Assembly: GCA_002299465.1 (NCBI GenBank)
Contig: DBNX01000014.1
Location: 19,052 to 83,051, forward strand
Direction: 5' to 3'
Source of the DNA: Patescibacteria group bacterium UBA661
GTDB taxonomy: Bacteria > Patescibacteriota > Minisyncoccia > Phycocordibacterales > UBA918
DNA: 64,000 bases
A model generated the notes under the pieces. That model saw only the letters and a program-made list of their open reading frames with translations, was not told the DNA's origin and made no database searches. Each line of letters begins with the position of its first letter. Position 1 is the first letter of the stretch. Both the position numbers and the translations under genes were made by a program. This document shows, piece after piece, positions 2,525 through 61,234 of this stretch.

Positions 2525-4219
2525 ATGACACAAGAAACCGCTTTGGAGATTTTGAAAACGGGAGCGAATGTTTTTCTCACAGGTGAACCGGGGGCTGGTA
2601 AGACTTATGTCATCAATCAGTACATAGCGTGGCTCGAAGCGGCGGGACTTAAAGTAGCAGTTACGGCTTCAACTGGTATTGCTGCTACGCACATTGGTGG
2701 ACTCACCATTCACTCGTGGAGTGGCATCGGTGCCCGAGACACACTTACGCATTATGACCTCGATCAAATAACAACCAAAGAAAAATTAGTGAAGCGTATC
2801 AAAAAGACGCAGGTGTTGGTGATTGATGAGGTGTCGATGCTTGACGGCAAGTTACTCGATATGGTGGATGTGGTTTGTCGCACCATCCGGGAGTCAAAAG
2901 AGGCGTTTGGTGGTATGCAGGTGGTTTGTGTCGGAGATTTTTTTCAATTACCGCCAGTGGCACGAGCGGGTGAAGTGTCACGCTATGCTTTTGAGTCACG
3001 CGCGTGGGAGAATTTATCCCCCCTAACTTGCTATCTAACCGAACAGCATCGCCAAGAAGATGAGTTGCTACTCAGTCTTTTGGGGGCAATCAGACGCGGC
3101 GAGATAGAGGAGGAGCACTACACTTTACTCGGAGAACAAGTCGCCATTGCTTATGCGGACATCGAACCGACTCGTCTGTACACGCACAATGCTGATGTGG
3201 ATGCCGTTAATTTGGCTAAATTGCGCGAATTATCAGGTGCGGTCCAAAACTTCACAATGACTGGGCATGGCAATCGTGTCTATCAAGAATCCTTGACGCG
3301 TAATTGTTTGTCGCCAGCCCAATTAGCGTTGAAAGTGGAAGCGATGGTGATGTGTACAAAAAATAATTTTGAAGCTGGTTATGTCAACGGTACGCTGGCT
3401 AGGGTGGTTGGTTTTGATAATTATGACAAGTACCCGATTATTGAAACAGCTGACAAAAGACGAATCACAGTGGAGCCGGTTACTTGGGAAGTGGTTGAGC
3501 ATGGTCGGGTTTTGGCGTCGATTGAACAGGTACCATTGCGTTTGGCTTGGGCAATTACAGTGCACAAAAGCCAAGGGATGTCACTAGACGCGGCTGAGGT
3601 AGATTTGTCGCGAGCGTTTGTTTATGGGCAGGGATACGTGGCGCTGTCGCGCGTGCGTGCACTGGCTGGTCTTAAAGTGCTGGGTGTTAATCCAAACGCG
3701 CTAATGGTCGATTCAAAAATCATCAACCAAGATGTTCGCTTTCGGAGTGATTCGGAGGCAGCGGAAGAAACTTTTACAGCTTTAGACCGACAGGAATTGC
3801 TTGGTATGCACGAACGTTTTGTGAAAGCCAGTGGTGGTAAACTCCCCACGGCTACCGCCACGGCTGAGGCAGTTTCCAGAGTTGGCAAACGTTTGGAGGG
3901 AGAGAGTACCTATGAACAAACTTTGCAAGCGTTAAAACAAGCTAAGTCATTGGGTGAACTCGCTCAAATGCGTAATTTGGCAGTGACAACAATACTTGGA
4001 CATCTCGAATATTTAGCAACGGCTGATAAATTAGAAAAAGACCTAATTTTGCCACTGTTGGCGGATTTTGCTGACAATAAAAAGGCTAAAGCGGCTGTTT
4101 ACGCCGCCATTGCTACTCATGGGGCAGAAAAATTAAAACCTCTTTATGAAGCAACCGATGGTAAATATGATTATCTGTTAATACGGCTTTTGCGGGTGGC
4201 TTACCAGTTGGGGATATAA
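2525..4219 (+). CDS. PIF1/RecD-like ATP-dependent DNA helicase
   Basis: Walker A GEPGAGKT at the N-terminus, DEVSM Walker B, and the order of AAA_30 then UvrD_C-like regions (QGMSLD...VALSRV) typical of PIF1-family helicases. Confidence 0.7.
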   Translation: MTQETALEILKTGANVFLTGEPGAGKTYVINQYIAWLEAAGLKVAVTASTGIAATHIGGLTIHSWSGIGARDTLTHYDLDQITTKEKLVKRIKKTQVLVIDEVSMLDGKLLDMVDVVCRTIRESKEAFGGMQVVCVGDFFQLPPVARAGEVSRYAFESRAWENLSPLTCYLTEQHRQEDELLLSLLGAIRRGEIEEEHYTLLGEQVAIAYADIEPTRLYTHNADVDAVNLAKLRELSGAVQNFTMTGHGNRVYQESLTRNCLSPAQLALKVEAMVMCTKNNFEAGYVNGTLARVVGFDNYDKYPIIETADKRRITVEPVTWEVVEHGRVLASIEQVPLRLAWAITVHKSQGMSLDAAEVDLSRAFVYGQGYVALSRVRALAGLKVLGVNPNALMVDSKIINQDVRFRSDSEAAEETFTALDRQELLGMHERFVKASGGKLPTATATAEAVSRVGKRLEGESTYEQTLQALKQAKSLGELAQMRNLAVTTILGHLEYLATADKLEKDLILPLLADFADNKKAKAAVYAAIATHGAEKLKPLYEATDGKYDYLLIRLLRVAYQLGI

Positions 4220-5415: not shown

Positions 5416-6288
5416 TTGAAGTTTGTTAAAAAAGAAAATAATTCATTTATGAATCTAAAATATTCAATTACAGCACTTTTATTGGTCGCCATGGTGGGCA
5501 TGGTTTCACCAGTGACAGTAAACGCCCAACAACCAAGTCCAACCAATTTAACTGAGCTAATGGAACGACTGCAAAGTCTCATTAAACAAGTAGAAGAATT
5601 ACAAAGGCAAATGAAAGCGTTGCGAGGGGAAGCGAGACCAGAAAAAGAAGCGAAGCCAGAAAAAAGAGATAGGGAACAAAAAGATCATCCACGAGCAAAA
5701 AATGCCAGCACTACGGCCGCTGCGGCGATTGCTGACGCGGAGAGGGCAATTACTGCCTTAGAGAGAGCCATCAGTGGAGCTACAACAACAGTCAGAGTTA
5801 ACACAATAAGAAACGCTGAAGACGCTTTAGATGACGCCCGAGAAGAATTAGCGGAAGCCCGAGAAGAATTTTCCGAGCAGGAGTTTCGTGACGCACACCA
5901 AACAGCGAGAGCGGCTCAGCGAGTGGCAGAAAGAGCCACTGCTAGACTGACTGGTAGCGAACGATTGGAGAGGAGAAATTTTGACAAAGATGATGATAAG
6001 GACGACAAAGACCGTTCAGCTTTAACAAGAAACGCCAGCACGACGGCTAGTCGAGCGATTGAATCTGCTCAAAAATTAATTGAAAGATTAGAAAGAGAAG
6101 TCACTAACACAACAGTGGCTGAGGAACGCTTAGAGGATGCGGAAGAATATCTTGATGATGCTATGGAAGAATTGGCTGAAGCCAGATTAGAGTTCTCAGA
6201 GCGAGATTTTCGTGACGCAGAAATGGAGGCCAGAGAAGCCATTCGTTATGCGGAAAGAGGACTGAAAATCCTAGAACAAGCTAGTTAA
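5416..6288 (+). CDS. secreted alpha-helical repeat protein, paralog of the 4331..5293 gene (hypothetical)
   Basis: Signal peptide MNLKYSITALLLVAMVGMVSPVTVNAQ is nearly identical to the neighbour's. Two copies of the motif AI..AE.AI..LERAISG.TTTV..N.....EDALDDA.EELAEAR.EFSE.EFRDA, plus a KDDDKDDKD acidic linker. Confidence 0.6.
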   Translation: MKFVKKENNSFMNLKYSITALLLVAMVGMVSPVTVNAQQPSPTNLTELMERLQSLIKQVEELQRQMKALRGEARPEKEAKPEKRDREQKDHPRAKNASTTAAAAIADAERAITALERAISGATTTVRVNTIRNAEDALDDAREELAEAREEFSEQEFRDAHQTARAAQRVAERATARLTGSERLERRNFDKDDDKDDKDRSALTRNASTTASRAIESAQKLIERLEREVTNTTVAEERLEDAEEYLDDAMEELAEARLEFSERDFRDAEMEAREAIRYAERGLKILEQAS

Positions 6289-10026: not shown

Positions 10027-11103
10027 ATGGAAACAGCAGTTTTACTTTTGTTGGCGTTAGTTTTGGGGGCTTTAGGTTTGGTGCTTTATGTGCTTTTTAC
10101 CAAAAAGACCGACCCAAAAGATAACCAAGCCCTGATTCTGATGCAACAACGCATTGAGGAACTTTCTCGTACTTTAGACACAAAATTGACCGAAGCCAAT
10201 CGAGCCATGCAGGAGGGGAGTCGGGTCCAATTTCGGGAAAGTCGCGAACTCATTCAAGCTATCAATCGCGAGGTTAATGAGCAATTGCGTGATGTGGTGA
10301 TAAAAACTACCGAAGTCAGCGAAAGTAGTAAACAAGTTTTTCAGATTGCTGATCAGCTAAAAGAGTTGCAGAGTATTCTAAAAAATCCAAAACAAAGAGG
10401 TATCTTGGGAGAGTATTATTTGGAGACTGTGCTACAAAATGTTTTGCCACCGGAGGGTTTCAAAATGCAATACGCTTTTACTGATGGGGAAGTGGTCGAT
10501 GCCGCGGTTTTTGTGAAAGGAAAAATCATCCCTGTTGACTCCAAGTTTTCTTTAGATAATTACAATCGTCTGGTGGAAGCGGCTGACGGTGCCGATAAAT
10601 TACAGCACGAAAAAAACTTTCTCAATGATCTTAAGCTTAGGATTACTGAAACCGCCAAATACATTCGCCCCACGGAGGGAACGATGGATTTTGCTTTTAT
10701 GTTCATTCCGCACGAGGGTATTTACTACGATTTACTTTCCAATCGAGTGGGTGCGGGTGAAGAAAATCTTATTCAGCGAGCGGCTGGTAAGTATCGTGTA
10801 ATTATCGTTTCCCCGACTTCTTTTTTGGCATATTTGCAAACAGTACTACAAGGTCTTAAGGCGCTTGAAATTGAAGAAAAAGCTCAGGACATTATCAAAA
10901 ATGTCGATAAGCTGAGTGGCCACATTGCTAAATACGAAGATTATTATCAAAAACTAGGAATGTCTTTAAGCACGACTGTCAATCATTACAATGCCGGCTA
11001 CAAAGAACTAGGGAAAGTAGACAAGGACATTTTGAAAATTACTGGTGAGAAGGTGGGTATAGAGACGCTTACTTTGGATAAGCCACAAAAGATTGATGAT
11101 TGA
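10027..11103 (+). CDS. rmuC: DNA recombination protein RmuC
   Basis: N-terminal TM helix, long coiled coil, and the conserved RmuC core (DFAFMFIPHEGIYYDLL...VIIVSPTSFLAYLQ). Confidence 0.8.
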   Translation: METAVLLLLALVLGALGLVLYVLFTKKTDPKDNQALILMQQRIEELSRTLDTKLTEANRAMQEGSRVQFRESRELIQAINREVNEQLRDVVIKTTEVSESSKQVFQIADQLKELQSILKNPKQRGILGEYYLETVLQNVLPPEGFKMQYAFTDGEVVDAAVFVKGKIIPVDSKFSLDNYNRLVEAADGADKLQHEKNFLNDLKLRITETAKYIRPTEGTMDFAFMFIPHEGIYYDLLSNRVGAGEENLIQRAAGKYRVIIVSPTSFLAYLQTVLQGLKALEIEEKAQDIIKNVDKLSGHIAKYEDYYQKLGMSLSTTVNHYNAGYKELGKVDKDILKITGEKVGIETLTLDKPQKIDD

Positions 11104-11132
11104 TTTTCTGTTTTTCTAAGCAGGATAAAATT

Positions 11133-11160
11133 TTGCTCATTTCTAATAAATCTGTATAAT
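11133..11160 (+). promoter_or_regulatory. candidate sigma70 promoter (TTGCTC-16-TATAAT) driving the aspS leader
   Basis: ttgctc at 11133-11138 and tataat at 11155-11160. Confidence 0.35.
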
Positions 11161-11166
11161 CAAAAA

Positions 11167-11395
11167 ACACCGCTGACGTGGCTGACACCACCGAGGTGAG
11201 AGAAGAAATCTTTCTGGAATTTAAGCACTCGTTACTTATCCAGAAAGTCAGTAGAACTCTCCGTAATCTAGTGGGCACGATACGCCCCAAGTGAGCGCTC
11301 ACACTGTATACAGTGGGGAAGTAGGGTGGCACCGCGATTAAATCGCCCCTACAGATATTTATTCTTAATAACATATCTGAGGGGCGATTTGCGTT
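11167..11395 (+). promoter_or_regulatory. T-box riboswitch leader (tRNA-Asp responsive) upstream of aspS
   Basis: Exact T-box core AGGGUGGCACCGCG at 11323-11336. Canonical antiterminator: A1 AGGG/CCCU, 7-nt bulge UGGCACC, A2 GCGA-UUAAA-UCGC. Overlapping alternative terminator hairpin aaatcgcccct (11340-11350) ... aggggcgattt (11380-11390). An AGAGA-like box (gagagaag) and GAC triplets lie upstream. Confidence 0.6.
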
Positions 11396-11414
11396 CCTCT
11401 TAAATTAAAAAACT

Positions 11415-12767
11415 ATGGAAAGAACTTTAATCAGCTCACTAGCTGAGCACATTGAGAAAGAGGTTGTCATTAAAGGTTGGATTGATGTAGCGCGCGATCA
11501 AGGTAAGGTTATTTTCTTTGATTTACGCGACCGCACCGGTGTTGTGCAAGGCGTTGTTTTTGGTAAACCTGAGATTCTAGAAACAGCAAAAACCGGACGG
11601 GTTGGTTGTGTTGTGTCTGTCACTGGTAAAGTCCATAAACGTCCCGACAAAATGCGCAACGACAAAGTGCAAAACGGCGATATTGAACTAGAAATTACGA
11701 ATCTCGAAATAATCAATACCGCCCTACCCATGCCTTTTGCGGAGGATGCCGAACTTAACCTCGACACTTTGCTTGATTATCGTCCGCTTACCCTACGCCG
11801 CGAGCGGGAGCGAGCTATTTTTAAGATTCAAGCTGAAATCTTGGTTGCTTACCGTAACTACCTTAACAGCCAAGGATTCACAGAGTTTCAGGCCCCTAAA
11901 TTAGTTGGTGGTGACGCTGAGGGTGGGGCGGAAGTTTTTCGGGTAAAATATTTTAAAGGAGTGGAAGCTTCACTTGCTACTAGTCCGCAACTTTACAAGC
12001 AAATTATGGCGGGTGTGTTTGAACGAGTCTATGCGGTTGGTCCAACTTTTAGAGCTGAAAAAAGCGCCACCACTCGGCATCTTTCGGAGATATCAATGCT
12101 GGACTTGGAAATGGCTTTTATCAAAGACCATACGGATGTGATTACCTTAGTCACTAGCTTGATGCGGGAAATTGTAGAGCATATCAATGACACTTGTGCC
12201 AAAGAATTGACGCTCTTAGGGCAGCCCTTGGCTCTGGCGCCACAAACCTTTCCCGTAATGACCCTGCGTGAAGCGCAAGCCCTGATCAAGAAAGAAACTG
12301 GTGTTGACAAGACCCAAGAACCCGACCTGGAACCAGAAGACGAGCGTTTTCTTTGTGATTATGCTAATAAACATCTCCACTCGGACTTTGTGTTCGTCAC
12401 ACATTTTCCAACCAGCAAACGTCCGTTTTACACTCACATCGACCCAGCTTGTCCGGAGTTTACTCGTAGTTTTGACCTTCTTTTCCGTGGTTTGGAAATG
12501 TGTTCGGGTGGACAGCGTGTCCATAAGTACGAAGAGTTAGTTGAACGCATAAAAAGTAAGGGGCTTGATCCAGATAAGTTTCAGTTTTACTTACAGGCCT
12601 TTAAGTACGGCATTCCACCGCACGGCGGAATCGGTCTGGGCTTAGAACGTCTTACCGCTAAGTTTTGCGGAGTTACTAACGTCAAAGAAGCTACTCTTTT
12701 CCCGCGAGACATCAACCGCATAGATACTTTCACCAGTCAGGAACAAAGTGAAACGGCAGACCTTTAA
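11415..12767 (+). CDS. aspS: aspartate--tRNA ligase, short archaeal/non-discriminating type
   Basis: 450 aa with an N-terminal OB anticodon-binding domain and class II motifs (FRAE, GGIGLGLERL). Lacks the bacterial GAD insertion. Confidence 0.9.
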   Translation: MERTLISSLAEHIEKEVVIKGWIDVARDQGKVIFFDLRDRTGVVQGVVFGKPEILETAKTGRVGCVVSVTGKVHKRPDKMRNDKVQNGDIELEITNLEIINTALPMPFAEDAELNLDTLLDYRPLTLRRERERAIFKIQAEILVAYRNYLNSQGFTEFQAPKLVGGDAEGGAEVFRVKYFKGVEASLATSPQLYKQIMAGVFERVYAVGPTFRAEKSATTRHLSEISMLDLEMAFIKDHTDVITLVTSLMREIVEHINDTCAKELTLLGQPLALAPQTFPVMTLREAQALIKKETGVDKTQEPDLEPEDERFLCDYANKHLHSDFVFVTHFPTSKRPFYTHIDPACPEFTRSFDLLFRGLEMCSGGQRVHKYEELVERIKSKGLDPDKFQFYLQAFKYGIPPHGGIGLGLERLTAKFCGVTNVKEATLFPRDINRIDTFTSQEQSETADL

Positions 12768-12818
12768 ACTAAAGACTAACAACCAAACATTCGGCTTTGA
12801 CTTACTCTGGGGTATACT

Positions 12819-14237
12819 GTGTTCACTATGCTTAAAATCACCATCAGTACCAAGTCGTTATCAGATCAACCAGCAAAATACACCCGTTTGGTGGTTACCG
12901 AAGACCCAATCAGCACCCACCGTTTCCGAGAAGACGAAAAGGGAATTACTACTTACCGGATGGGTATCGGCAAGTATGCCGATATGGATGCGCGCGCTTT
13001 TCGGACTATGATTCGGTCAGTCGTGCAAGCCGCCAAAAGCCACGAAGTTGAGGCCTTGGCGATAGCATTAGATTTTAACCAATTTCCAAAACTAGCTTCA
13101 TACCCGCCAGATTGGTTGGTGAGTACTGTTACCGAAAACTTGCTCTTGGCTAGTTACGAATTCCTCAAATATAAAACCAAAGAAAAGAAAAAGACTCTCA
13201 CGGAAGTAGTGTTGGTTGATTTGACCGAACCGTCCTCTAAAGCTGGCTTAAGCCGGGGTCTTGTCGTGGGTGAGTATGTAAATTGGGCGCGTGATTTAGC
13301 TAACACTGCAGCCTGCGATTTGTCACCAGCAAAATTAGCCGAAGCGGCTAAAAAACTAATGGCCAACACCAAAGTTTCTGTCAAAGTGTTGGGGCAAAAA
13401 GATCTGGTGAAGTTAAAAATGGGCGCGCTTTTGGCGGTTGGTCAGGGCACGCGTCAAGAGACTAAATTAATTATTGCCGAATACTGGGGAGCTGGTAAGA
13501 ATGACAAAACAAAACCACTGGTGCTCATCGGCAAGGGAATCACTTATGACACGGGTGGTCTCAATGTAAAGCCATCAGGATCTATGCACGAGATGCATAT
13601 GGATATGTCTGGTGGCGCCACCGTACTAGCCGCAATCGCCGCTGCCGCCAAATTGGGATTAAAGAAAAACATCGTTGCCTTAGTGCCAGCCGCTGAAAAT
13701 GCCATTTCTGATACAGCGATGCGAGCGGGCGATATCGTCACGGCTATGAATGGTAAGACCATCGAGATTCTGCACACCGATGCCGAAGGACGACTTATTC
13801 TGGCGGATGCCCTAACTTACAGTCAGCGTTATCAACCACGAGCGATTTTGGACGTGGCGACATTGACCGGCGCTGCGTTAGTGGCGCTCGGACAGCACGC
13901 CAGTGCTGTTATGACCAAAGACCAAAATTTGCAGGATACTTTGGTTAAACTGGGAGAGGTTTCCGGTGATTTGATTTGGCCACTGCCACTTTGGGACGAG
14001 TACAAACAACACCTCAAAAGTTATCGCGCTGATGTAAGCAATATCGCCACTAATTTCTCACGGTTTGGTGGTTCTATTGAAGGTGGGACATTTCTTTCCT
14101 TTTTCGCTCCAGCCGACACGCCTTGGGCACATCTTGATATCGCACCCCGCATGGATAGTATTCCTAGTGATAAATTAGCGAAGGGGGCAACTGGTGAGCC
14201 GGTGCGTCTGCTGATTTCTTTTCTCGAAAACTATTAA
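12819..14237 (+). CDS. pepA: leucyl aminopeptidase (M17 family)
   Basis: NTDAEGRL signature and the M17 catalytic-domain motifs (GKGITYDTGG, MDMSGGA). Confidence 0.85.
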   Translation: MFTMLKITISTKSLSDQPAKYTRLVVTEDPISTHRFREDEKGITTYRMGIGKYADMDARAFRTMIRSVVQAAKSHEVEALAIALDFNQFPKLASYPPDWLVSTVTENLLLASYEFLKYKTKEKKKTLTEVVLVDLTEPSSKAGLSRGLVVGEYVNWARDLANTAACDLSPAKLAEAAKKLMANTKVSVKVLGQKDLVKLKMGALLAVGQGTRQETKLIIAEYWGAGKNDKTKPLVLIGKGITYDTGGLNVKPSGSMHEMHMDMSGGATVLAAIAAAAKLGLKKNIVALVPAAENAISDTAMRAGDIVTAMNGKTIEILHTDAEGRLILADALTYSQRYQPRAILDVATLTGAALVALGQHASAVMTKDQNLQDTLVKLGEVSGDLIWPLPLWDEYKQHLKSYRADVSNIATNFSRFGGSIEGGTFLSFFAPADTPWAHLDIAPRMDSIPSDKLAKGATGEPVRLLISFLENY

Positions 14238-18933: not shown

Positions 18934-20043
18934 ATGAAAATTGGTTTTGTTGGCGGTGGTACAGGGGGGCATTTTTATCCGCTCATAGCAGTGGCAGAAG
19001 TGCTGATTGACTCTCCCCAAAAACCAGAATTGTACTATTTTGGTCCAGAGCCTTACGATGCCAGCTTACTTAAGCAGTGCGGTATTACTTTTGTATATTG
19101 TCCCGCTGGGAAATTACGTCTTTATTTTTCAATCCAAAACTTTTTTGATATATTTCGGAATTTTTTTGGGGTTTTCGTAGCTATTTGGAAGTTGTACTGT
19201 TTGTACCCAGATGTAATTTTTAGCAAAGGCGGTTACACAAGCGTACCAATTCTTATCGCCGCACGACTTTTGCGCATTCCGGTAGTGATTCACGAATCTG
19301 ACGCGGTACCCGGGCGGGCAAATTTGCTAGCTCGCAAATTTGCCCGCTACATCGCCATCTCCTACCCGGAAGCGGCTAAGCATTTCCCGACTGCCAAGAC
19401 CGCTCTCACTGGTATCCCGATTCGGAGAGAGCTTTTAACTCCAGACTCGGACCCCTTCAGCACCCTAGGAATACCCAATGATTTACCCTTGGTTTATGTG
19501 ACGGGTGGTTCTCTCGGGGCGGTGAGATTAAACAATGTCATACTAGAAACCCTAGATGAGTTATTACCAGTTTGTCGGGTTTACCACCAGACTGGTAAAG
19601 CTCATCTAGAGACAGTGCGTTTATCGGCACAAAGTTTTATTAAAGACAGCTCCCTCCAAGAGAGGTATTATTTGGTGGATACTCTACCGGTAGAAAAGGT
19701 TAACGCTCTTCTCACCGCGGCTTCCATTGTAATCACTCGAGCCGGTAGTACAACTTTGTTTGAAATTGGTATTCACGGTACACCCAGTATCATCATCCCG
19801 ATTCCTGAAGACATCAGTCGCGACCAGCGTAGTAACGCCTACGCCTTTGCTCGGAGTGGGGGAGCGACAGTAATTGAAGAACGCAATTTAAGTGATGTCT
19901 TGCTTACCGCGGAAATTCGTTCTATTATTGGCAACCCTGAACACTGGCGAGAAATGAGTGCTGCTGCCAAACAGTTTGTGCCACATGATGCCGCCGAAAA
20001 AATTGCGGCTAGTCTAATTCAGATTGGAATTGAACATGGATAA
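18934..20043 (+). CDS. murG: UDP-N-acetylglucosamine--N-acetylmuramyl-(pentapeptide) pyrophosphoryl-undecaprenol N-acetylglucosamine transferase
   Basis: GT28 N-terminus (GGGTGGHFYPLIAVAE) and C-terminal MurG domain; follows ftsW. Confidence 0.8.
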   Translation: MKIGFVGGGTGGHFYPLIAVAEVLIDSPQKPELYYFGPEPYDASLLKQCGITFVYCPAGKLRLYFSIQNFFDIFRNFFGVFVAIWKLYCLYPDVIFSKGGYTSVPILIAARLLRIPVVIHESDAVPGRANLLARKFARYIAISYPEAAKHFPTAKTALTGIPIRRELLTPDSDPFSTLGIPNDLPLVYVTGGSLGAVRLNNVILETLDELLPVCRVYHQTGKAHLETVRLSAQSFIKDSSLQERYYLVDTLPVEKVNALLTAASIVITRAGSTTLFEIGIHGTPSIIIPIPEDISRDQRSNAYAFARSGGATVIEERNLSDVLLTAEIRSIIGNPEHWREMSAAAKQFVPHDAAEKIAASLIQIGIEHG

Positions 20044-21508
20044 TAATCCGTCACCGACAAATAACAAAATCGTCACACGCTTTGCTCCGTCACCGACGGG
20101 TTTTATGCATATTGGGGGAGTCCGCACGGCTCTCTTTGCGTATCTTTACGCTCGCAAACAGGGTGGGAAATTCATTCTAAGAATTGAAGATACGGATAAA
20201 GCCCGAGAATTGGCTGGTTCGATTGCTCACATTCAAGAATCGCTACGTTGGCTTGGTATCAGTTGGGATTACGGTCCAGATAAACCTGGTCCTTTTGGTT
20301 CGTGTGTGCAATCAGAACGTTTGCCGAGTTATCGTGCCTGGGCAGAAAAATTAATCACGGCTGGATTTGCCTACCCTGACCCTTACACCGAAGAACAGGT
20401 TGCTGTTTTTCGTGAACAAGCCACCAAAGAAAACCGTCCGTTTTTATATCGTCAGCACCGTCCGTCTACTTTCGAAACTTGGGATGGCACCAAACCGCTT
20501 CGGCTTAAAGCCCCAGCCATTAAACGTTACCATTGGCACGATGTGACTCGGGGAGAATTGTCAGCCGGGGAAGAAATGGTGGATGATGTTGTGCTCATCA
20601 AGTCTGATGGTTATCCAACCTACAACTTCGCTCACATCATTGATGATTATGAAATGGGGGTAACGCACATTATGCGGGGCGATGAGTTTATCGCCAGTAC
20701 GCCTAAGTTTCTAAGCATCTACGATGCGCTCGGTTTTGCTTATCCGACTTTTGTGACCCTACCGCCAATCCTTCGCGATGACCGAACAAAAAAACTCGGC
20801 AAACGCGATGGTGCCAAAGACATTCTTGAATATCGCACGGAAGGTTATCTACCAGAAGCGATGGTTAATTTTTTGGCACTAATTGGCTGGAATCCGGGGA
20901 CTGATCAGGAATTGTTTACAACCGAGGAATTAATTGCGGCTTTTGATATAAGAAAAATTCAACGGGCGGGGGCGGCTTTTAACGAAACAAAACTTTTGTG
21001 GATGAATAAGCAACACTTACTACGCAAGTCCCAAGATGAGCAATTTTCTTATGTGCTAAACGCTTTACCACCAACCCTACTGGCGCAACCACAGTACTCC
21101 GAACAACGTCTAAAACGACTTCTACCAACTATTCTCGAGCGGGTGAGCGTGGCAGTGGAAGTTGCGGAGGCGTTCGCTGTGGGCGAATATGATTACGTAT
21201 TTGCTTCACCGGCATACGACCAGTCCCTCTTACGCTGGAAAAACGACACCTCGGTAGTGGCTGTCAAACCGCGTTTGGAGCACGCCAAAACACTACTTGT
21301 GACAGCTGATTTTTCTAATGCCGAAACCATTAAAGCCAGTCTGTGGCCATACACCGATGAAGTCGGTCGCGGTGAAATACTCTGGCCACTGCGCGTTGCT
21401 CTCTCTGGCAAGGAACGTTCACCAGACCCGTTTACATTGGCTTACATACTCGGTAAAGAGGAAACGCTGCTCCGAATTGAAAAGGCTTGTGCTAAAATAG
21501 GGGAATGA
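20024..21508 (+). CDS. gltX: glutamate--tRNA ligase
   Basis: Class I HIGH motif (PSPTGFMHIGGVRTALF) and KMSKS-like motif (KLGKRDG). Overlaps the murG 3' end by 20 nt. Confidence 0.9.
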   Translation: MELNMDNNPSPTNNKIVTRFAPSPTGFMHIGGVRTALFAYLYARKQGGKFILRIEDTDKARELAGSIAHIQESLRWLGISWDYGPDKPGPFGSCVQSERLPSYRAWAEKLITAGFAYPDPYTEEQVAVFREQATKENRPFLYRQHRPSTFETWDGTKPLRLKAPAIKRYHWHDVTRGELSAGEEMVDDVVLIKSDGYPTYNFAHIIDDYEMGVTHIMRGDEFIASTPKFLSIYDALGFAYPTFVTLPPILRDDRTKKLGKRDGAKDILEYRTEGYLPEAMVNFLALIGWNPGTDQELFTTEELIAAFDIRKIQRAGAAFNETKLLWMNKQHLLRKSQDEQFSYVLNALPPTLLAQPQYSEQRLKRLLPTILERVSVAVEVAEAFAVGEYDYVFASPAYDQSLLRWKNDTSVVAVKPRLEHAKTLLVTADFSNAETIKASLWPYTDEVGRGEILWPLRVALSGKERSPDPFTLAYILGKEETLLRIEKACAKIGE

Positions 21509-38942: not shown

Positions 38943-40403
38943 ATGTTTAGTAATCTTTTTCGATCCGAGAAAACCGCCTTCGCTACCTTGCCTATCCAGC
39001 TCTACAATACCAGCGGTGGCCAGAAAGAAATTTTTCAAGCTCAAAATGACGGGGTGGTTTTAATGTACAGTTGTGGCCCAACGGTTTACGATTACGCCCA
39101 CATTGGAAACCTTAGATCGTACGTTTTTTCAGATATCTTAAAACGCACCCTGCAATTTCATGGCTACGCTGTTTCCCACACTATAAATTTTACTGACTTC
39201 GGGCACCTCACAGATGATGGTGATGCCGGTGAAGACAAAATGATGAAAGGTCTCAAGCGTGAGGGGTTGCCAGTGACACTGGAGGCAATGCGCGACCTCT
39301 CGGATCGTTACATTAGGGCCTTTACAGAAGATTTTGCCGCTCTGCGCATTATTCCCCCCACGACTTGGGCGCGGGCGAGTGAATATATTCCAGAACAAAT
39401 TAAACTCATTGCGACACTACAAGAGGCTGGCTATACTTATGAAACTAGTGACGGAGTTTATTTTGACATTAGCAAGTTTCCGGCTTACGGCAAACTCGGA
39501 AACATTAACTTGAGTGAATTAAAAAGCGGAGCACGGGTAGAAATTAACACTGAAAAAAGACAAGCGGCTGACTTTGCTGTTTGGAAAAAAGGCACTCTCG
39601 GTTGGGACAGTCGTTGGGGTAAAGGTTTTCCGGGTTGGCACATTGAATGCTCTGCGATGGCGATGGCTACGCTTAGTGAAACTATCGATATTCATACTGG
39701 TGGCATAGATCACATACCAGTTCATCACAACGCTGAAATTGCCCAATGTGAGTGTGCTACTGGTAAGACTTTTGCTCGGTACTGGCTTCATAATGCCTTT
39801 CTTAGTATCAACAACACCAAAGTCAGCAAATCACTTGGCAACACTTTCACTCTACGTCAGCTGTTTGAGCAAGGTTTCACTGGAGAAGATTATCGGTACT
39901 GGTTACTGACTGCACATTACCGCTCGCCGGTAAATTTTTCTTGGGAAGCTTTAGCGGCAGCGAAGCAAGCTCTCTTTCGTTTGCGTCGCCTTGTCTATGA
40001 GGAATATCAACAAGTAGACGGTGTTCCAGAAACCAACTACGTTGCGCAATTACGCAGTCATCTCGCTAACGATTTAGACACACCGGCGGTGATTGCCTTG
40101 CTTTGGCAAATTACCAAAGATACCAATCTAGACAATCCGACCAAGTGCGCCACCATTAAGGTTTTTGACAGTATTCTCGATGTTGGGCTAAGTGCCACCA
40201 AAGCAGAGGGGCAAGAGGCGCTGGGAACGGTAACTGCCGATGAAATTCCGTCCGCCATTCAAACTTTGCTAGACAAACGAGAGGCGGCCCGAATTGCCAA
40301 CAATTGGTTCGAAGCTGACACTCTGCGCGAAGCTATTAAAATCAAGGGTTACAATCTAGAAGACACTCCGCACGGACCAAAACTAAGTAAAATCTTGGAT
40401 TAG
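38943..40403 (+). CDS. cysS: cysteine--tRNA ligase
   Basis: HIGN(LRSY) HIGH motif, KMSKS (KVSKSLGN), and the Zn-binding Cys/His pattern of CysRS. Confidence 0.9.
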   Translation: MFSNLFRSEKTAFATLPIQLYNTSGGQKEIFQAQNDGVVLMYSCGPTVYDYAHIGNLRSYVFSDILKRTLQFHGYAVSHTINFTDFGHLTDDGDAGEDKMMKGLKREGLPVTLEAMRDLSDRYIRAFTEDFAALRIIPPTTWARASEYIPEQIKLIATLQEAGYTYETSDGVYFDISKFPAYGKLGNINLSELKSGARVEINTEKRQAADFAVWKKGTLGWDSRWGKGFPGWHIECSAMAMATLSETIDIHTGGIDHIPVHHNAEIAQCECATGKTFARYWLHNAFLSINNTKVSKSLGNTFTLRQLFEQGFTGEDYRYWLLTAHYRSPVNFSWEALAAAKQALFRLRRLVYEEYQQVDGVPETNYVAQLRSHLANDLDTPAVIALLWQITKDTNLDNPTKCATIKVFDSILDVGLSATKAEGQEALGTVTADEIPSAIQTLLDKREAARIANNWFEADTLREAIKIKGYNLEDTPHGPKLSKILD

Positions 40404-59260: not shown

Positions 59261-61234
59261 TCAATCGGTAAAAATGGCCTTGATTCGTCTCACGCCGGCG
59301 GCCGAGGACTCTTCTTTACTGATTTTAAAGGTGCTTGGCAATTCTTCGAGGCGTTCGACATGTGGTCCGCCACAAAGTTCTCGGGAAAAAATTTCACCCT
59401 TGTAGCCGGTCATCGTGTAAACTTTAACTTCGTCTGGATAACGGTCCCAAAAACTAGCTTCAATAGTTTTATCAGCTTGTGCCACCGACTTAGGTAAAAT
59501 TTCAATACTGACTACCCCACCGCTTTTGATGGCTTCATTAACGTAATTTTCAACTTCATTTATTTGCTCGGGAGTAAGCTTGTCAGGGTGAGTAAAATCA
59601 TAGCGGGACCTTTCGCCGGTTATGTTGGAGCCGGCCTGGTGCACGTGTTCACCCAAAACCTTACGCAGTCCTGCCAATAGTAAATGGGTAGCGGTGTGGT
59701 ACTGAATTACTCTAGTTGAGTTATCTGCCAAACCACCCTTAAATTTATGTTCAGCCCCAATCCGAGAAGCGTCTTTGTGGGCTTGCATTTTTAAGTTAAA
59801 TTGCTCTCGACTTACCGTTAGTTTACGTTCCTGTGCCATTTCTTCAACAATTTCTATCGGAATCCCATAAGTAGTTACAAACTTAAAGACCACCTCCGAA
59901 TCAAGCTCGCGACTTTCGCCTACTTCTTTTTTTGCTGATTCACCCCGATTAAGATCTTCCGTTAAGTTGTATTTATCAAACTCTTTTTCAAATTCTCGGA
60001 AACCTTTAGCGAGAGTCTTGCGGAATTGCTCTTCTTCCTGACTGATGGCCTGCAAAATCTGAGTTTCTTGTTCTTTTAGATTTGGATACTGATTTTGGTA
60101 GGTGGCAATTACGCTTTTGGCTAATTCCGCAAAACGCCCTGCCGGCACAGCGATGCGATCCGCATACCGAACCGCCCGCCGCAGTAGGCGACGAACAAAG
60201 TATGGCTGATCAGTATTCCCCGGGTTTACCCCGTCACCAATTAACAGCACGGCTCCGCGTAAGTGGTCCGTGATAACGCGAAAAGCAATTAAATCGTCTT
60301 CGTAATTTTTACCAGAAAGGCGTGAAATATGGGCGACTACGTCAGCTAGTAAATCTACCTTAAAAATATCGGGATCAGCATTTTTGGCAGCGGCAATACG
60401 CTCCAAGCCACCACCAAAATCAACGTTACGTTGGGCTAATTTTGAGAAAGTACCGTCTTCGTTTTTGATGTATTCAATAAAAACCGAGTTGCCGATTTCA
60501 AGAAATTGTCCAGAGTCGCTGTTAGGATGAGGGGCTTGGGCAGCAAAGACGGGGTGAGTGGCGAAGGTGGGACCAAAATCGTAAAAAACTTCGCTGTCTG
60601 GTCCACCAATCTCACCGCTAGGCATAGCTGCCGGCTTGCCAGCGCGACTCCACCAATTTTTGGTGGCATCGTAATAAAAAATCCGACCTCCTTGCATTCC
60701 AATTTCGTAACCAGCTGCTTCCGATCCGATATGCACTGCCTTGGCTTCAATTCCACGTTCAGCAAAAAGCTCTTGCCAAATAGCTACCGCCTCCTCATCG
60801 CGTGGGATGCCGAGGGATTCATCCCCAGCAAAAACTGTCACATAAATTCGATTGGGGTCAAGACCAACCTCATCTACTAAAAAAGTAAAAAACCACCGTA
60901 ATTGTTCCTGCTTAAAATAATCACCGAGTGACCAATTACCCAACATTTCAAAAAATGTGGTGTGTCGATTATCCCCCACTTCTTCAATATCATTGGCGCG
61001 AAAACACTTTTGTGAGTTTACCAAACGGACCCCTTTGGGGTGTTTTTCACCTAGTAAATACGGTATTAGTGGTTGCATTCCGCTGCCAGTAAACAATGTC
61101 GTCGGGTCATTTTCTGGCACAAGAGCCGAGGACGGAATAATTGCGTGCTTCCGGCTTTCCATAAAATTAAGATATTTGTCTCGAATCGTGTTTCCTCCCA
61201 TATTGCATTGAATTAATTTATGATTTAAAGGCAC
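59261..61234 (-). CDS. alaS: alanine--tRNA ligase, short form lacking the C-Ala domain
   Basis: The class II catalytic core, tRNA-recognition domain and editing domain (HTATHLL...CGGPHV) are all present and the protein ends after the editing domain (657 aa). The ORF-track start is GTG at 61234; an ATG lies at 61201. Confidence 0.85.
   Translation of the reverse strand: MPLNHKLIQCNMGGNTIRDKYLNFMESRKHAIIPSSALVPENDPTTLFTGSGMQPLIPYLLGEKHPKGVRLVNSQKCFRANDIEEVGDNRHTTFFEMLGNWSLGDYFKQEQLRWFFTFLVDEVGLDPNRIYVTVFAGDESLGIPRDEEAVAIWQELFAERGIEAKAVHIGSEAAGYEIGMQGGRIFYYDATKNWWSRAGKPAAMPSGEIGGPDSEVFYDFGPTFATHPVFAAQAPHPNSDSGQFLEIGNSVFIEYIKNEDGTFSKLAQRNVDFGGGLERIAAAKNADPDIFKVDLLADVVAHISRLSGKNYEDDLIAFRVITDHLRGAVLLIGDGVNPGNTDQPYFVRRLLRRAVRYADRIAVPAGRFAELAKSVIATYQNQYPNLKEQETQILQAISQEEEQFRKTLAKGFREFEKEFDKYNLTEDLNRGESAKKEVGESRELDSEVVFKFVTTYGIPIEIVEEMAQERKLTVSREQFNLKMQAHKDASRIGAEHKFKGGLADNSTRVIQYHTATHLLLAGLRKVLGEHVHQAGSNITGERSRYDFTHPDKLTPEQINEVENYVNEAIKSGGVVSIEILPKSVAQADKTIEASFWDRYPDEVKVYTMTGYKGEIFSRELCGGPHVERLEELPSTFKISKEESSAAGVRRIKAIFTD

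Follow-up and report, generated by a model that had tools for sequence, protein, structure and literature searches.

We asked what occupies the intergenic gap in front of aspS, the aspartyl-tRNA synthetase (AspRS) gene of Patescibacteria group bacterium UBA661, and by what route it would act on that gene. The DNA analysed, called the window throughout, is a 64-kb stretch of contig DBNX01000014.1, in which a gap of 311 nucleotides (nt) separates an rmuC-like gene (10027-11103) from aspS (11415-12767). An earlier note on this DNA had read the gap as a canonical T-box riboswitch, T-boxes being the textbook case of one structured RNA reading another. Judged by its sequence, the aspS leader is a real T-box; it is not a canonical one, and has a stripped-down form that standard annotation misses. 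We regard it as probable that the leader is a tRNA-Asp-sensing T-box with an ultrashort Stem I, most likely controlling aspS through transcription attenuation.

A T-box leader below the curated threshold

At curated gathering thresholds, no Rfam family matched anywhere in the 64-kb window. In E-value mode, the T-box family RF00230 was the sole Rfam family with E < 0.1 in the window, and it matched 11164-11353 over the full model with 43.7 bits, corresponding to E = 1.6e-8 locally and 2.4e-6 for the whole window. The RF00230 gathering score is 93, and the low score of the leader is explained by Stem I, where about 74 model positions are replaced by 4 nt. A hit above threshold, to which the earlier note had looked for its proof, was thus not obtained, while the assignment to the family over the full model held. 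The exact T-box core that it had reported is in place: the 14-mer AGGGUGGCACCGCG stands at 11323-11336 and matches the family's conserved sequence AGGGUGGNACCGCG. Besides the 14-mer, the leader has the antiterminator, the mutually exclusive terminator, a specifier followed by a purine, a kink-turn (K-turn), a Stem II with an S-turn, a Stem IIA/B pseudoknot and Stem III. The distal Stem I platform is missing, the specifier stands in a terminal loop, and the pair at the base of antiterminator helix A2 is G-C and not the G.U wobble of the family, so that, together with the missed gathering score, the label canonical had to be given up.

Close homologues of the AspRS number in the thousands, and the few that are named come from Paceibacterota, Parcubacteria and the Patescibacteria group, in keeping with the earlier suggestion of a host like those of the Candidate Phyla Radiation (CPR), here Patescibacteria/Paceibacteria. 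An alignment of 16 AspRS orthologues was used to retrieve 80 genome loci with AspRS identities of 62-85%, of which 78 gave usable upstream regions. The leader core (GGUGGNACC) was found upstream of aspS in 54 of these 78 loci, mostly 85-135 nt before the ATG. Since the upstream neighbour in the relatives is never rmuC (0 of 75 related loci), the leader belongs to aspS. Structural conservation was evaluated in two alignments, A2 for Stem I (54 leaders, 51 of 54 rows distinct) and A3 for the antiterminator, the terminator and a third hairpin (44 leaders, all rows distinct), with 500 shuffles and slid helices as controls for covariation. As far as the sequences of the relatives can tell, compensatory substitutions are found in every helix.

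An ultrashort Stem I with an aspartate codon in its terminal loop

All leader elements described here lie on the plus strand. Stem I, delimited by the Rfam alignment and by covariation in alignment A2, is ultrashort, with only 31 nt (11168-11198). Its lower part is a K-turn made of the C-stem CACC/GGUG, a 3-nt bulge (GCU) and the tandem G.A/A.G pairs of G11175-A11176 with G11193-A11194, and its upper part is a 4-bp helix, GUGG/CCAC, closed by the terminal loop CUGACA. The specifier GAC (11184-11186), followed by the purine A11187, is located in this terminal loop and not in an internal loop. Neither the AG bulge nor the distal loop nor the tRNA-elbow platform is present, all of this being contained in the 74 model positions that are reduced to 4 nt. 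The GAC triplets noticed earlier are therefore of two kinds: the one at 11176-11178 is part of the K-turn, and the one at 11184-11186 is the aspartate codon 5' of a purine that a Stem I of this specificity was expected to carry.

Across the 54 leaders, 88.9% of the cells in the Stem I helices are paired and all eight of eight pairs have changed on both sides. None of the 500 shuffles reached the observed values, and the slid controls were 27-59% paired. Among the K-turn positions, no leader departs from G7 and A26, and A8 and G25 are conserved in at least 90% of the leaders. The loop behaves in the same manner, with A17 invariant, G16, C18 and A19 each conserved to at least 90%, and the two preceding bases variable. 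The codon is GAC in 48 leaders, GAU in three (L025, L044, L055) and AAC in three (L019, L038, L077), and the sole triplet kept constant in the loop is consequently GAY (51 of 54), with A as the next base in at least 90% of cases. The leaders with AAC are otherwise intact, with the loops CUAACAA (L019, ~5726-5758), CUAACU (L038, 5650-5679) and AAAACA (L077, 5503-5531). They would fit an enzyme that also serves tRNA-Asn, which we take as a weak lead only, since the change from G to A is a single transition.

Stem II, the IIA/B pseudoknot and Stem III

Stem II with its S-turn (loop E) spans 11198-11261 and was defined by folding and by compensatory changes in its base helix. The sequence GAGAGAAGAA at 11198-11207, which had been described as an AGAGA-like box, turned out to be the start of this stem. 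The base helix pairs GAGAG (11198-11202) with CUCUC (11257-11261), the internal loop sets AAGAA (11203-11207) opposite AGUAGAA (11250-11256), and the upper helix is formed by AUCUUUCUGG...CCAGAAAGU. The segment folds at -17.5 kcal/mol (z = -2.6). The arrangement GRRRG-NRGAA ... AGUARAN-CYYYC-CG is common to 17 leaders, in which the upper part of Stem II ranges from 22 to 122 nt, and the base helix exists in the compensatory versions GAGGG/CCCUC, GGGGG/CCCCC, GGAAG/CUUCC and GAGAG/CUCUC.

The Stem IIA/B pseudoknot (11262-11287), read from the sequences by hand, has an enlarged first loop. IIA is formed by C11262-G11263-U11264 with A11277-C11278-G11279, IIB by GGGC (11273-11276) with GCCC (11284-11287), and the loop is ACGAUAC. 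The IIA pairs are CGG/CCG in 13 leaders and CGU/ACG in six, the window included, with two mismatches. This would give IIA moderate covariation support, because the change between CGG/CCG and CGU/ACG may be one evolutionary event. IIB co-varies through GGGC/GCCC, GUGC/GCAC, GCAA/UUGC, GCGU/ACGC and UUGGU/ACCAA.

The Stem III region (11289-11321) was recognised from minimum-free-energy folds and from flanking purines that are kept in the relatives. The helix at about 11298-11318 is CUCACACUG-UAUA-CAGUGGGG with one bulge, flanked by AAGUG (11289-11293) and AAG (11319-11321). In the relatives the stems vary, and the purines recur as AAGUG, AAGAG, AUGAG or ACGAG on the 5' side and as (G)AAG on the 3' side. 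The perfect 12-nt palindrome GUGAGCGCUCAC (11292-11303) reaches from the 5' flank into the beginning of Stem III and could form a small competing hairpin; the extra AGCG of this region is missing in close relatives.

Mutually exclusive antiterminator and putative terminator, and a third hairpin

The antiterminator, or discriminator core, occupies 11322-11351 and is supported by an Rfam posterior near 1, by folding and by covariation. It consists of helix A1 (UAGGG/CCCUA), the 7-nt bulge UGGCACC (11327-11333) and helix A2 (GCGAU-UAA-AUCGC), and folds at -8.8 kcal/mol, so that the antiterminator of the earlier note is borne out. In the 44 leaders of alignment A3, 91.4% of its cells are paired, compensatory changes occur at four pairs, and no shuffle (0 of 500) reached the covariation score. 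The fourth base of the bulge is C in 49 and U in five of 54 leaders. The bulge UGGC would pair with a tRNA 3' end GCCA, and the sequence fits the proposed match to G73, the discriminator of bacterial tRNA-Asp.

The putative terminator hairpin and its tail extend over 11340-11395, as indicated by folding, covariation and the U-rich tail. The hairpin itself, which had been placed correctly at 11340-11390, has about 22 bp and folds at -28.4 kcal/mol (z = -9.4), with none of 200 shuffles as stable. Because it shares AAAUCGCCCCUA with the antiterminator, the two structures are mutually exclusive. In the 44 leaders, 86.2% of the terminator cells are paired, ten pairs have changed on both sides, and again 0 of 500 shuffles reached the covariation score. 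The hairpin runs into the U-rich tail UUUGCGUU at 11388-11395. The U-tract of the window had already been called weak, and UUUGCGUUCC does contain 5 U in 8 nt; in the relatives the median number of U in the first 8 nt is 6, often with runs of 4-6 U.

A third hairpin (11379-11399) was identified by folding and by covariation in columns 124-162 of A3. In this structure the 3' arm of the terminator, GAGGGGCG (11379-11386), pairs with CGUUCCUC (11392-11399), leaving the U-tract in the loop. It folds at -11.5 kcal/mol (z = -3.2). In the 44 leaders 85.2% of its cells are paired and seven pairs have changed on both sides; 0 of 500 shuffles reached the covariation score, and slid controls were 52-62% paired. 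As an example, the pair of columns 126 and 159 is UA in 15, GC in nine, UG in six and CG in two leaders. The third hairpin cannot affect the termination decision: its 3' strand is not yet transcribed when that decision is taken, and the hairpin forms only after read-through. That it might protect the start region against the G-rich arm once this is freed was considered and rejected, since modelling showed no difference in start-site access.

Transcription or translation

The promoter that the earlier note had found plausible is present at 11133-11160, with a -35 box TTGCTC (11133-11138), a 16-nt spacer that ends in TG (11153-11154) and thus gives an extended -10, and the -10 box TATAAT (11155-11160). 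The close relatives L002, L003, L004 and L006 carry TTGACC, 16 nt and (TG)TGTATAAT at an equal distance to Stem I, which supports TTGCTC...TGTATAAT as the promoter in the window. Transcription would then start at about 11167-11169, immediately 5' of Stem I. A simple promoter and terminator scan of the window called neither element of the aspS leader; the promoter was missed because its -35 box matches the consensus at only three of six positions.

No Shine-Dalgarno (SD) sequence precedes the ATG at 11415, as had been observed before. This absence had been taken to suggest a decision at the level of translation, a suggestion that we abandon, the genome being nearly SD-less and modelled start-site access equal in both states. 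Only 6 of 48 window genes have even a loose SD motif. Given this scarcity throughout the genome, a missing SD before aspS is normal, and SD sequestration has nothing to act on. In many genes an extended -10 (TGnTAnAAT) ends 6-12 nt before the ATG (e.g. 15104, 21505, 38943, 40475, 51825), a pattern that suggests widespread leaderless or near-leaderless mRNAs and makes the long aspS leader an exception. The window is enriched in terminator-like sites (30, 34 and 32, the expectation being about 21), and clear intrinsic terminators stand at gene ends, for instance at 28990-28958.

If the large hairpin acted by occluding the start site, then the start region should become more accessible once the antiterminator is held. 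This was modelled in 45 leaders and rejected, as the states do not differ: the mean unpaired probability from -18 to +12 was 0.60 in the OFF state (free) and 0.595 in the ON state (antiterminator held; p = 0.39). For the window, the model predicts 0.72 OFF and 0.80 ON. The end of the terminator hairpin is 24 nt away from the ATG. We also considered a leader peptide, or the SD-like GGAGG of the 3' arm serving a start codon of its own, and found none at a suitable distance. Attenuation is therefore our best reading of the output, ranked first with about two-thirds of our confidence in this step and with translational control well behind. It is preferred because of the U-tracts of the relatives, the intrinsic terminators in use, the SD-less genome and the unchanged access to the start codon.

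By the attenuation mechanism we propose, transcription would start about 7 nt past the TGTATAAT box, and the nascent K-turn hairpin would present GAC and the following A in its terminal loop to the GUC anticodon of tRNA-Asp. The purines of the Stem II S-turn would dock beside this loop and clamp the codon-anticodon helix, with the K-turn and the IIA/B pseudoknot positioning Stem II, and this docking may replace the missing contact to the tRNA elbow. The charging state would be sensed at the bulge. With uncharged tRNA, the 3' end GCCA would pair with UGGC and, together with Stem III, stabilise the antiterminator, so that polymerase reads through into aspS. With charged tRNA, or with none bound, the hairpin of -28 kcal/mol would form over AAAUCGCCCCUA, and transcription would stop at the U-rich tail.

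Several observations weigh against this mechanism. The leader scores far under the gathering threshold of RF00230 (43.7 bits against 93). Helix A2 of canonical T-boxes has at its base a conserved G.U, regarded as the principal steric sensor for the aminoacyl group, and here the corresponding pair is G11334-C11346; in the relatives it is G-C in 38 of 44 leaders and G.U in six (A3 columns 18-69). The U-tract UUUGCGUU of the window is weak and was not called by the simple terminator scan, and the conserved third hairpin has no place in a simple two-state model. ARAGORN runs on the window, 60 related loci and both contig flanks (~17 kb) gave no tRNA-Asp gene, and since none was retrieved for this organism the anticodon and discriminator pairings are assumed. 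Many relatives (e.g. L024, L031, L035, L022, L030), the window not among them, carry hairpin insertions of up to about 40 nt in helix A2 (A3 columns 23-61), and such insertions are associated with translational T-boxes that have a short Stem I (PMC7583486). Transcriptional T-boxes, moreover, generally need the elbow contact of a long Stem I so as to capture the tRNA fast, ahead of the polymerase's arrival at the terminator (PMC7583486, section 6.2). With ultrashort stems known only from translational switches, the proposed combination runs contrary to current experience.

A translational T-box like those of the actinobacterial ultrashort class would use the big hairpin as a sequestrator on a full-length mRNA, from which bound uncharged tRNA would free the initiation region. 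This reading draws on the known ultrashort Stem I T-boxes, all of them translational, and also on the weak U-tract of the window, the SD-like GAGGGG/GGAGG in the 3' arm of the hairpin and the likeness of the relatives' A2 insertions to those of translational T-boxes. However, a distance of about 30 nt or more separates the SD-like stretch from the ATG, no start codon comes after that stretch, the U-tracts are conserved 3' of the hairpin, and the hairpin ends well 5' of the ATG in a genome that is essentially without SD sequences and in leaders whose start regions are equally unpaired in both states. We therefore judge translational control unlikely. In a three-state switch, attenuation would come first, and the third hairpin would then keep the read-through mRNA from the 22-bp duplex, with an effect on stability or processing (e.g. 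by RNase III or 5'-end decay) and not on initiation. This would give a role to a hairpin that is conserved with compensatory changes in 44 leaders, is stable in the window and, according to the ON-state prediction, takes up the 3' arm (unpaired probability 0.12). In S. aureus, moreover, a T-box leader is reported to be processed by RNase III (PMC7913692). Against it, the cleavage or stability effect is hypothetical, G-rich and pyrimidine-rich strands pair promiscuously, as the slid controls illustrate, the antiterminator and third hairpin together (-20.3 kcal/mol) are less stable than the terminator (-28.4 kcal/mol), and modelling shows no effect on start-site access. A third state of this sort is a minor possibility in our estimation.

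Two further explanations concern the signal and the reality of the switch. The leader might sense tRNA-Asn, or both tRNA-Asp and tRNA-Asn, the enzyme being a non-discriminating AspRS: the gene matches an aspartate--tRNA(Asn) ligase equivalog, three intact relatives have the AAC specifier, and in Clostridium acetobutylicum a T-box responsive to Asn is placed over genes of tRNA-dependent amidation in the accounts of PMC4206432 and PMC4574755. The GAC of the window, however, cannot make three Watson-Crick pairs with a GUU anticodon, the 6-nt loop shows no second codon, and three cases of a single transition are weak evidence beside 51 of 54 leaders with GAC or GAU, which makes this reading very improbable for the window. 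Least likely of all, and in our view hardly to be credited, is a decaying or chance sequence that resembles a T-box and has no regulatory function. The sub-threshold Rfam score, the truncated Stem I and the weak U-tract of the window would be explained by it. A sequence without function would not be expected to persist in 54 of 78 loci at AspRS identities of 62-85%, with compensatory substitutions in every helix, a codon that varies only to a synonymous or an Asn codon and a conserved promoter, and the distinct rows of both alignments (44 of 44 in A3, 51 of 54 in A2) exclude that the relatives are assembly duplicates.

Comparison with known T-boxes

Ultrashort Stem I ileS T-boxes of Actinobacteria were reportedly described by Sherwood, Grundy and Henkin in 2015. 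All members of this ultrashort class, also labelled class II, regulate ileS (bioRxiv 10.1101/2023.02.28.530422). Like the ileS T-boxes of Mycobacterium and Nocardia (6UFG, 6UFM), the aspS leader has a K-turn, a very short helix and a specifier followed by a purine in the terminal loop, without an elbow platform; it also shares with them the Stem II S-turn, the IIA/B pseudoknot, Stem III and the T-box discriminator (bioRxiv 10.1101/2023.02.28.530422, PMC7583486). Even the numbering agrees suggestively with the N. farcinica ileS structure: counted from the first base of the C-stem, the third base of the codon is C18, the purine is A19, and A38/A39 stand in the S-turn strand. Following the same analogy, Stem II and IIA/B may compensate for the missing elbow contact (after PMC7583486). 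The window leader thus has the structural features of the ultrashort class and departs from it in amino acid, gene, output and host: the codon is GAC (Asp) in front of aspS where the class has AUC (Ile) in front of ileS, SD/anti-SD sequestration gives way to a hairpin followed by a U-tract, the genome being SD-less, and the host belongs to Patescibacteria and not to Actinobacteria. In addition, its first IIA/B loop is enlarged and a third hairpin follows the U-tract.

With class I transcriptional T-boxes (RF00230, e.g. B. subtilis tyrS) the leader has in common the identical 14-mer, the 7-nt UGGN-ACC bulge, the antiterminator and terminator alternatives, the K-turn, the S-turn, IIA/B, Stem III with its purines and an aminoacyl-tRNA synthetase gene as target, and its Asp codon is that of Asp-specific leaders. 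Such leaders, Vitreschak et al. are said to have reported in 2008, precede aspS or hisS-aspS in Firmicutes. Unlike class I, the window leader has no internal specifier loop, AG bulge, distal loop or elbow platform, its A2 base pair is G-C in place of G.U, and it stays at 43.7 bits against a threshold of 93. It resembles glyQS, a natural minimal transcriptional T-box without Stem II and IIA/B, in being a natural reduction that keeps a terminator output, and the absence of Stem II in glyQS recurs in those relatives that have only Stem III or only a linker (L028, L047 and others). The reductions differ, however, in what is given up, for glyQS retains the platform of a long Stem I and a strong GGC-GCC pairing (PMC7583486), whereas the window leader drops the platform and keeps Stem II.

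The 'NT-box' of Clostridium acetobutylicum (Saad et al. 2012, 2013), to the extent that PMC4206432 and PMC4574755 present it, is likewise a T-box over an indirect Asn-tRNA-Asn pathway with a non-discriminating AspRS. As presented there, it governs an operon and carries, on a long Stem I, a dual-specificity specifier loop of 8 nt. The window leader, in contrast, has its GAC in a terminal loop and stands in front of aspS, with pepA possibly included. The short-stem model of TBDB has been applied only to Actinobacteria and to class I hits with a truncated Stem I. In the open-access literature we found no ultrashort T-boxes outside the translational ileS switches of Actinobacteria, and among open-access papers none that links T-boxes with Patescibacteria, CPR, Parcubacteria or Saccharibacteria, which is absence of evidence and not proof.

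The gene, its neighbours and other T-boxes of the clade

The gene aspS (11415-12767, plus strand) encodes a 450-aa aspartyl-tRNA synthetase of archaeal, non-discriminating type, in agreement with the family named in the earlier note. It scores 483 bits against NCBIfam NF003483 (aspartate--tRNA(Asn) ligase equivalog; cutoff 353) and 394.6 bits against TIGR00458 (cutoff 368.4). The start at 11415 is well defined, with M1 invariant in the 16 orthologues and an in-frame stop three codons upstream. No gatA, gatB or asnS was found among the large open reading frames (ORFs) of the window or the genes called in its flanks, which together cover about 81 kb of the genome. The leucyl aminopeptidase gene pepA (window 12768-14237) follows on the same strand 51 nt 3' of aspS. 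The order aspS-pepA recurs in 29 of 75 related loci and in 24 of the 54 loci with a T-box, and co-transcription and co-regulation of pepA under the T-box are possible.

Across the leader, the source record calls an antisense ORF of 101 aa (window 11069-11374, minus strand; L081 18545-18850). It is probably spurious, because the conserved RNA structure lies on the plus strand. The other synthetase genes on the contig, gltX (20024-21508), cysS (38943-40403), alaS (59261-61234, minus strand) and leuS (L083 1-2034), have no T-box; the cysS promoter abuts the cysS ATG.

Locus L035 contains a second, different T-box (2344-2103, minus strand; Rfam 32.5 bits, E = 0.0018), with a UGGU bulge and a hairpin followed by UUUUUU; the genes downstream of it encode a YbdK-like carboxylate-amine ligase and a glutamine amidotransferase. 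T-boxes in this clade are therefore not confined to aspS. A regular-expression search for more T-box cores in 0.96 Mb of loci gave this one as the only further true T-box. A metagenome scan with a codon-independent junction pattern yielded at least two genuine leaders among the matches listed, both with GAC. Since most of the listed matches arose by chance, the scan says nothing on other specifiers.

Minimal leaders and the relation of architecture to output

The compact relatives of the aspS leader remain undetected by the Rfam model at E < 0.01. The shortest of them (L047, L051, L053, L061, L080) measure 99-105 nt, against 184 nt in the window; the leader of L047 (~3012-3120) is one of those without an Rfam detection at this cutoff. 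In these minimal leaders a purine-rich linker of about 25 nt joins the ultrashort Stem I to the T-box. Of Stem III only the flanking purines (AUGAG...AAAG) persist, the helix itself being gone together with Stem II and the IIA/B pseudoknot. Appreciable binding of tRNA is seen neither with a truncated Stem I that lacks Stem II nor with an antiterminator that lacks Stem III (PMC7583486), and by these rules the minimal leaders are either defective or informative. If they work, they would be the smallest natural T-boxes and would contradict both rules, the one that makes Stem II indispensable to a truncated Stem I and the one that makes Stem III indispensable to the antiterminator. On balance we hold it an even question whether Paceibacteria harbour an undescribed T-box lineage, one that reads tRNA co-transcriptionally without the elbow contact, combines an ultrashort Stem I with an intrinsic terminator and has pared some of its members down to about 100 nt.

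In current models architecture and output go together: fast co-transcriptional decisions are taken to require a long Stem I with an elbow platform, and ultrashort stems to be tolerated in translational ileS switches of Actinobacteria only. An Asp-specific ultrashort T-box with a terminator, in another phylum and in an SD-less genome, is a natural test of this rule, and it widens the amino-acid and phyletic range of the ultrashort class. The third hairpin, if its role is confirmed, would add a post-decision state not described for T-boxes. The locus also illustrates how curated thresholds miss regulatory RNAs in CPR genomes, with the gathering score not reached and a probably spurious antisense ORF called instead. 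With natural members graded in length between 184 nt and about 100 nt, the leader family may be used for structural work and for the design of small tRNA-responsive switches. For the organisms themselves, these leaders indicate that reduced, probably auxotrophic cells still monitor the charging of tRNA-Asp, and in a few lineages probably that of tRNA-Asn, to set the level of AspRS, the one enzyme that may feed both tRNA-Asp and tRNA-Asn.

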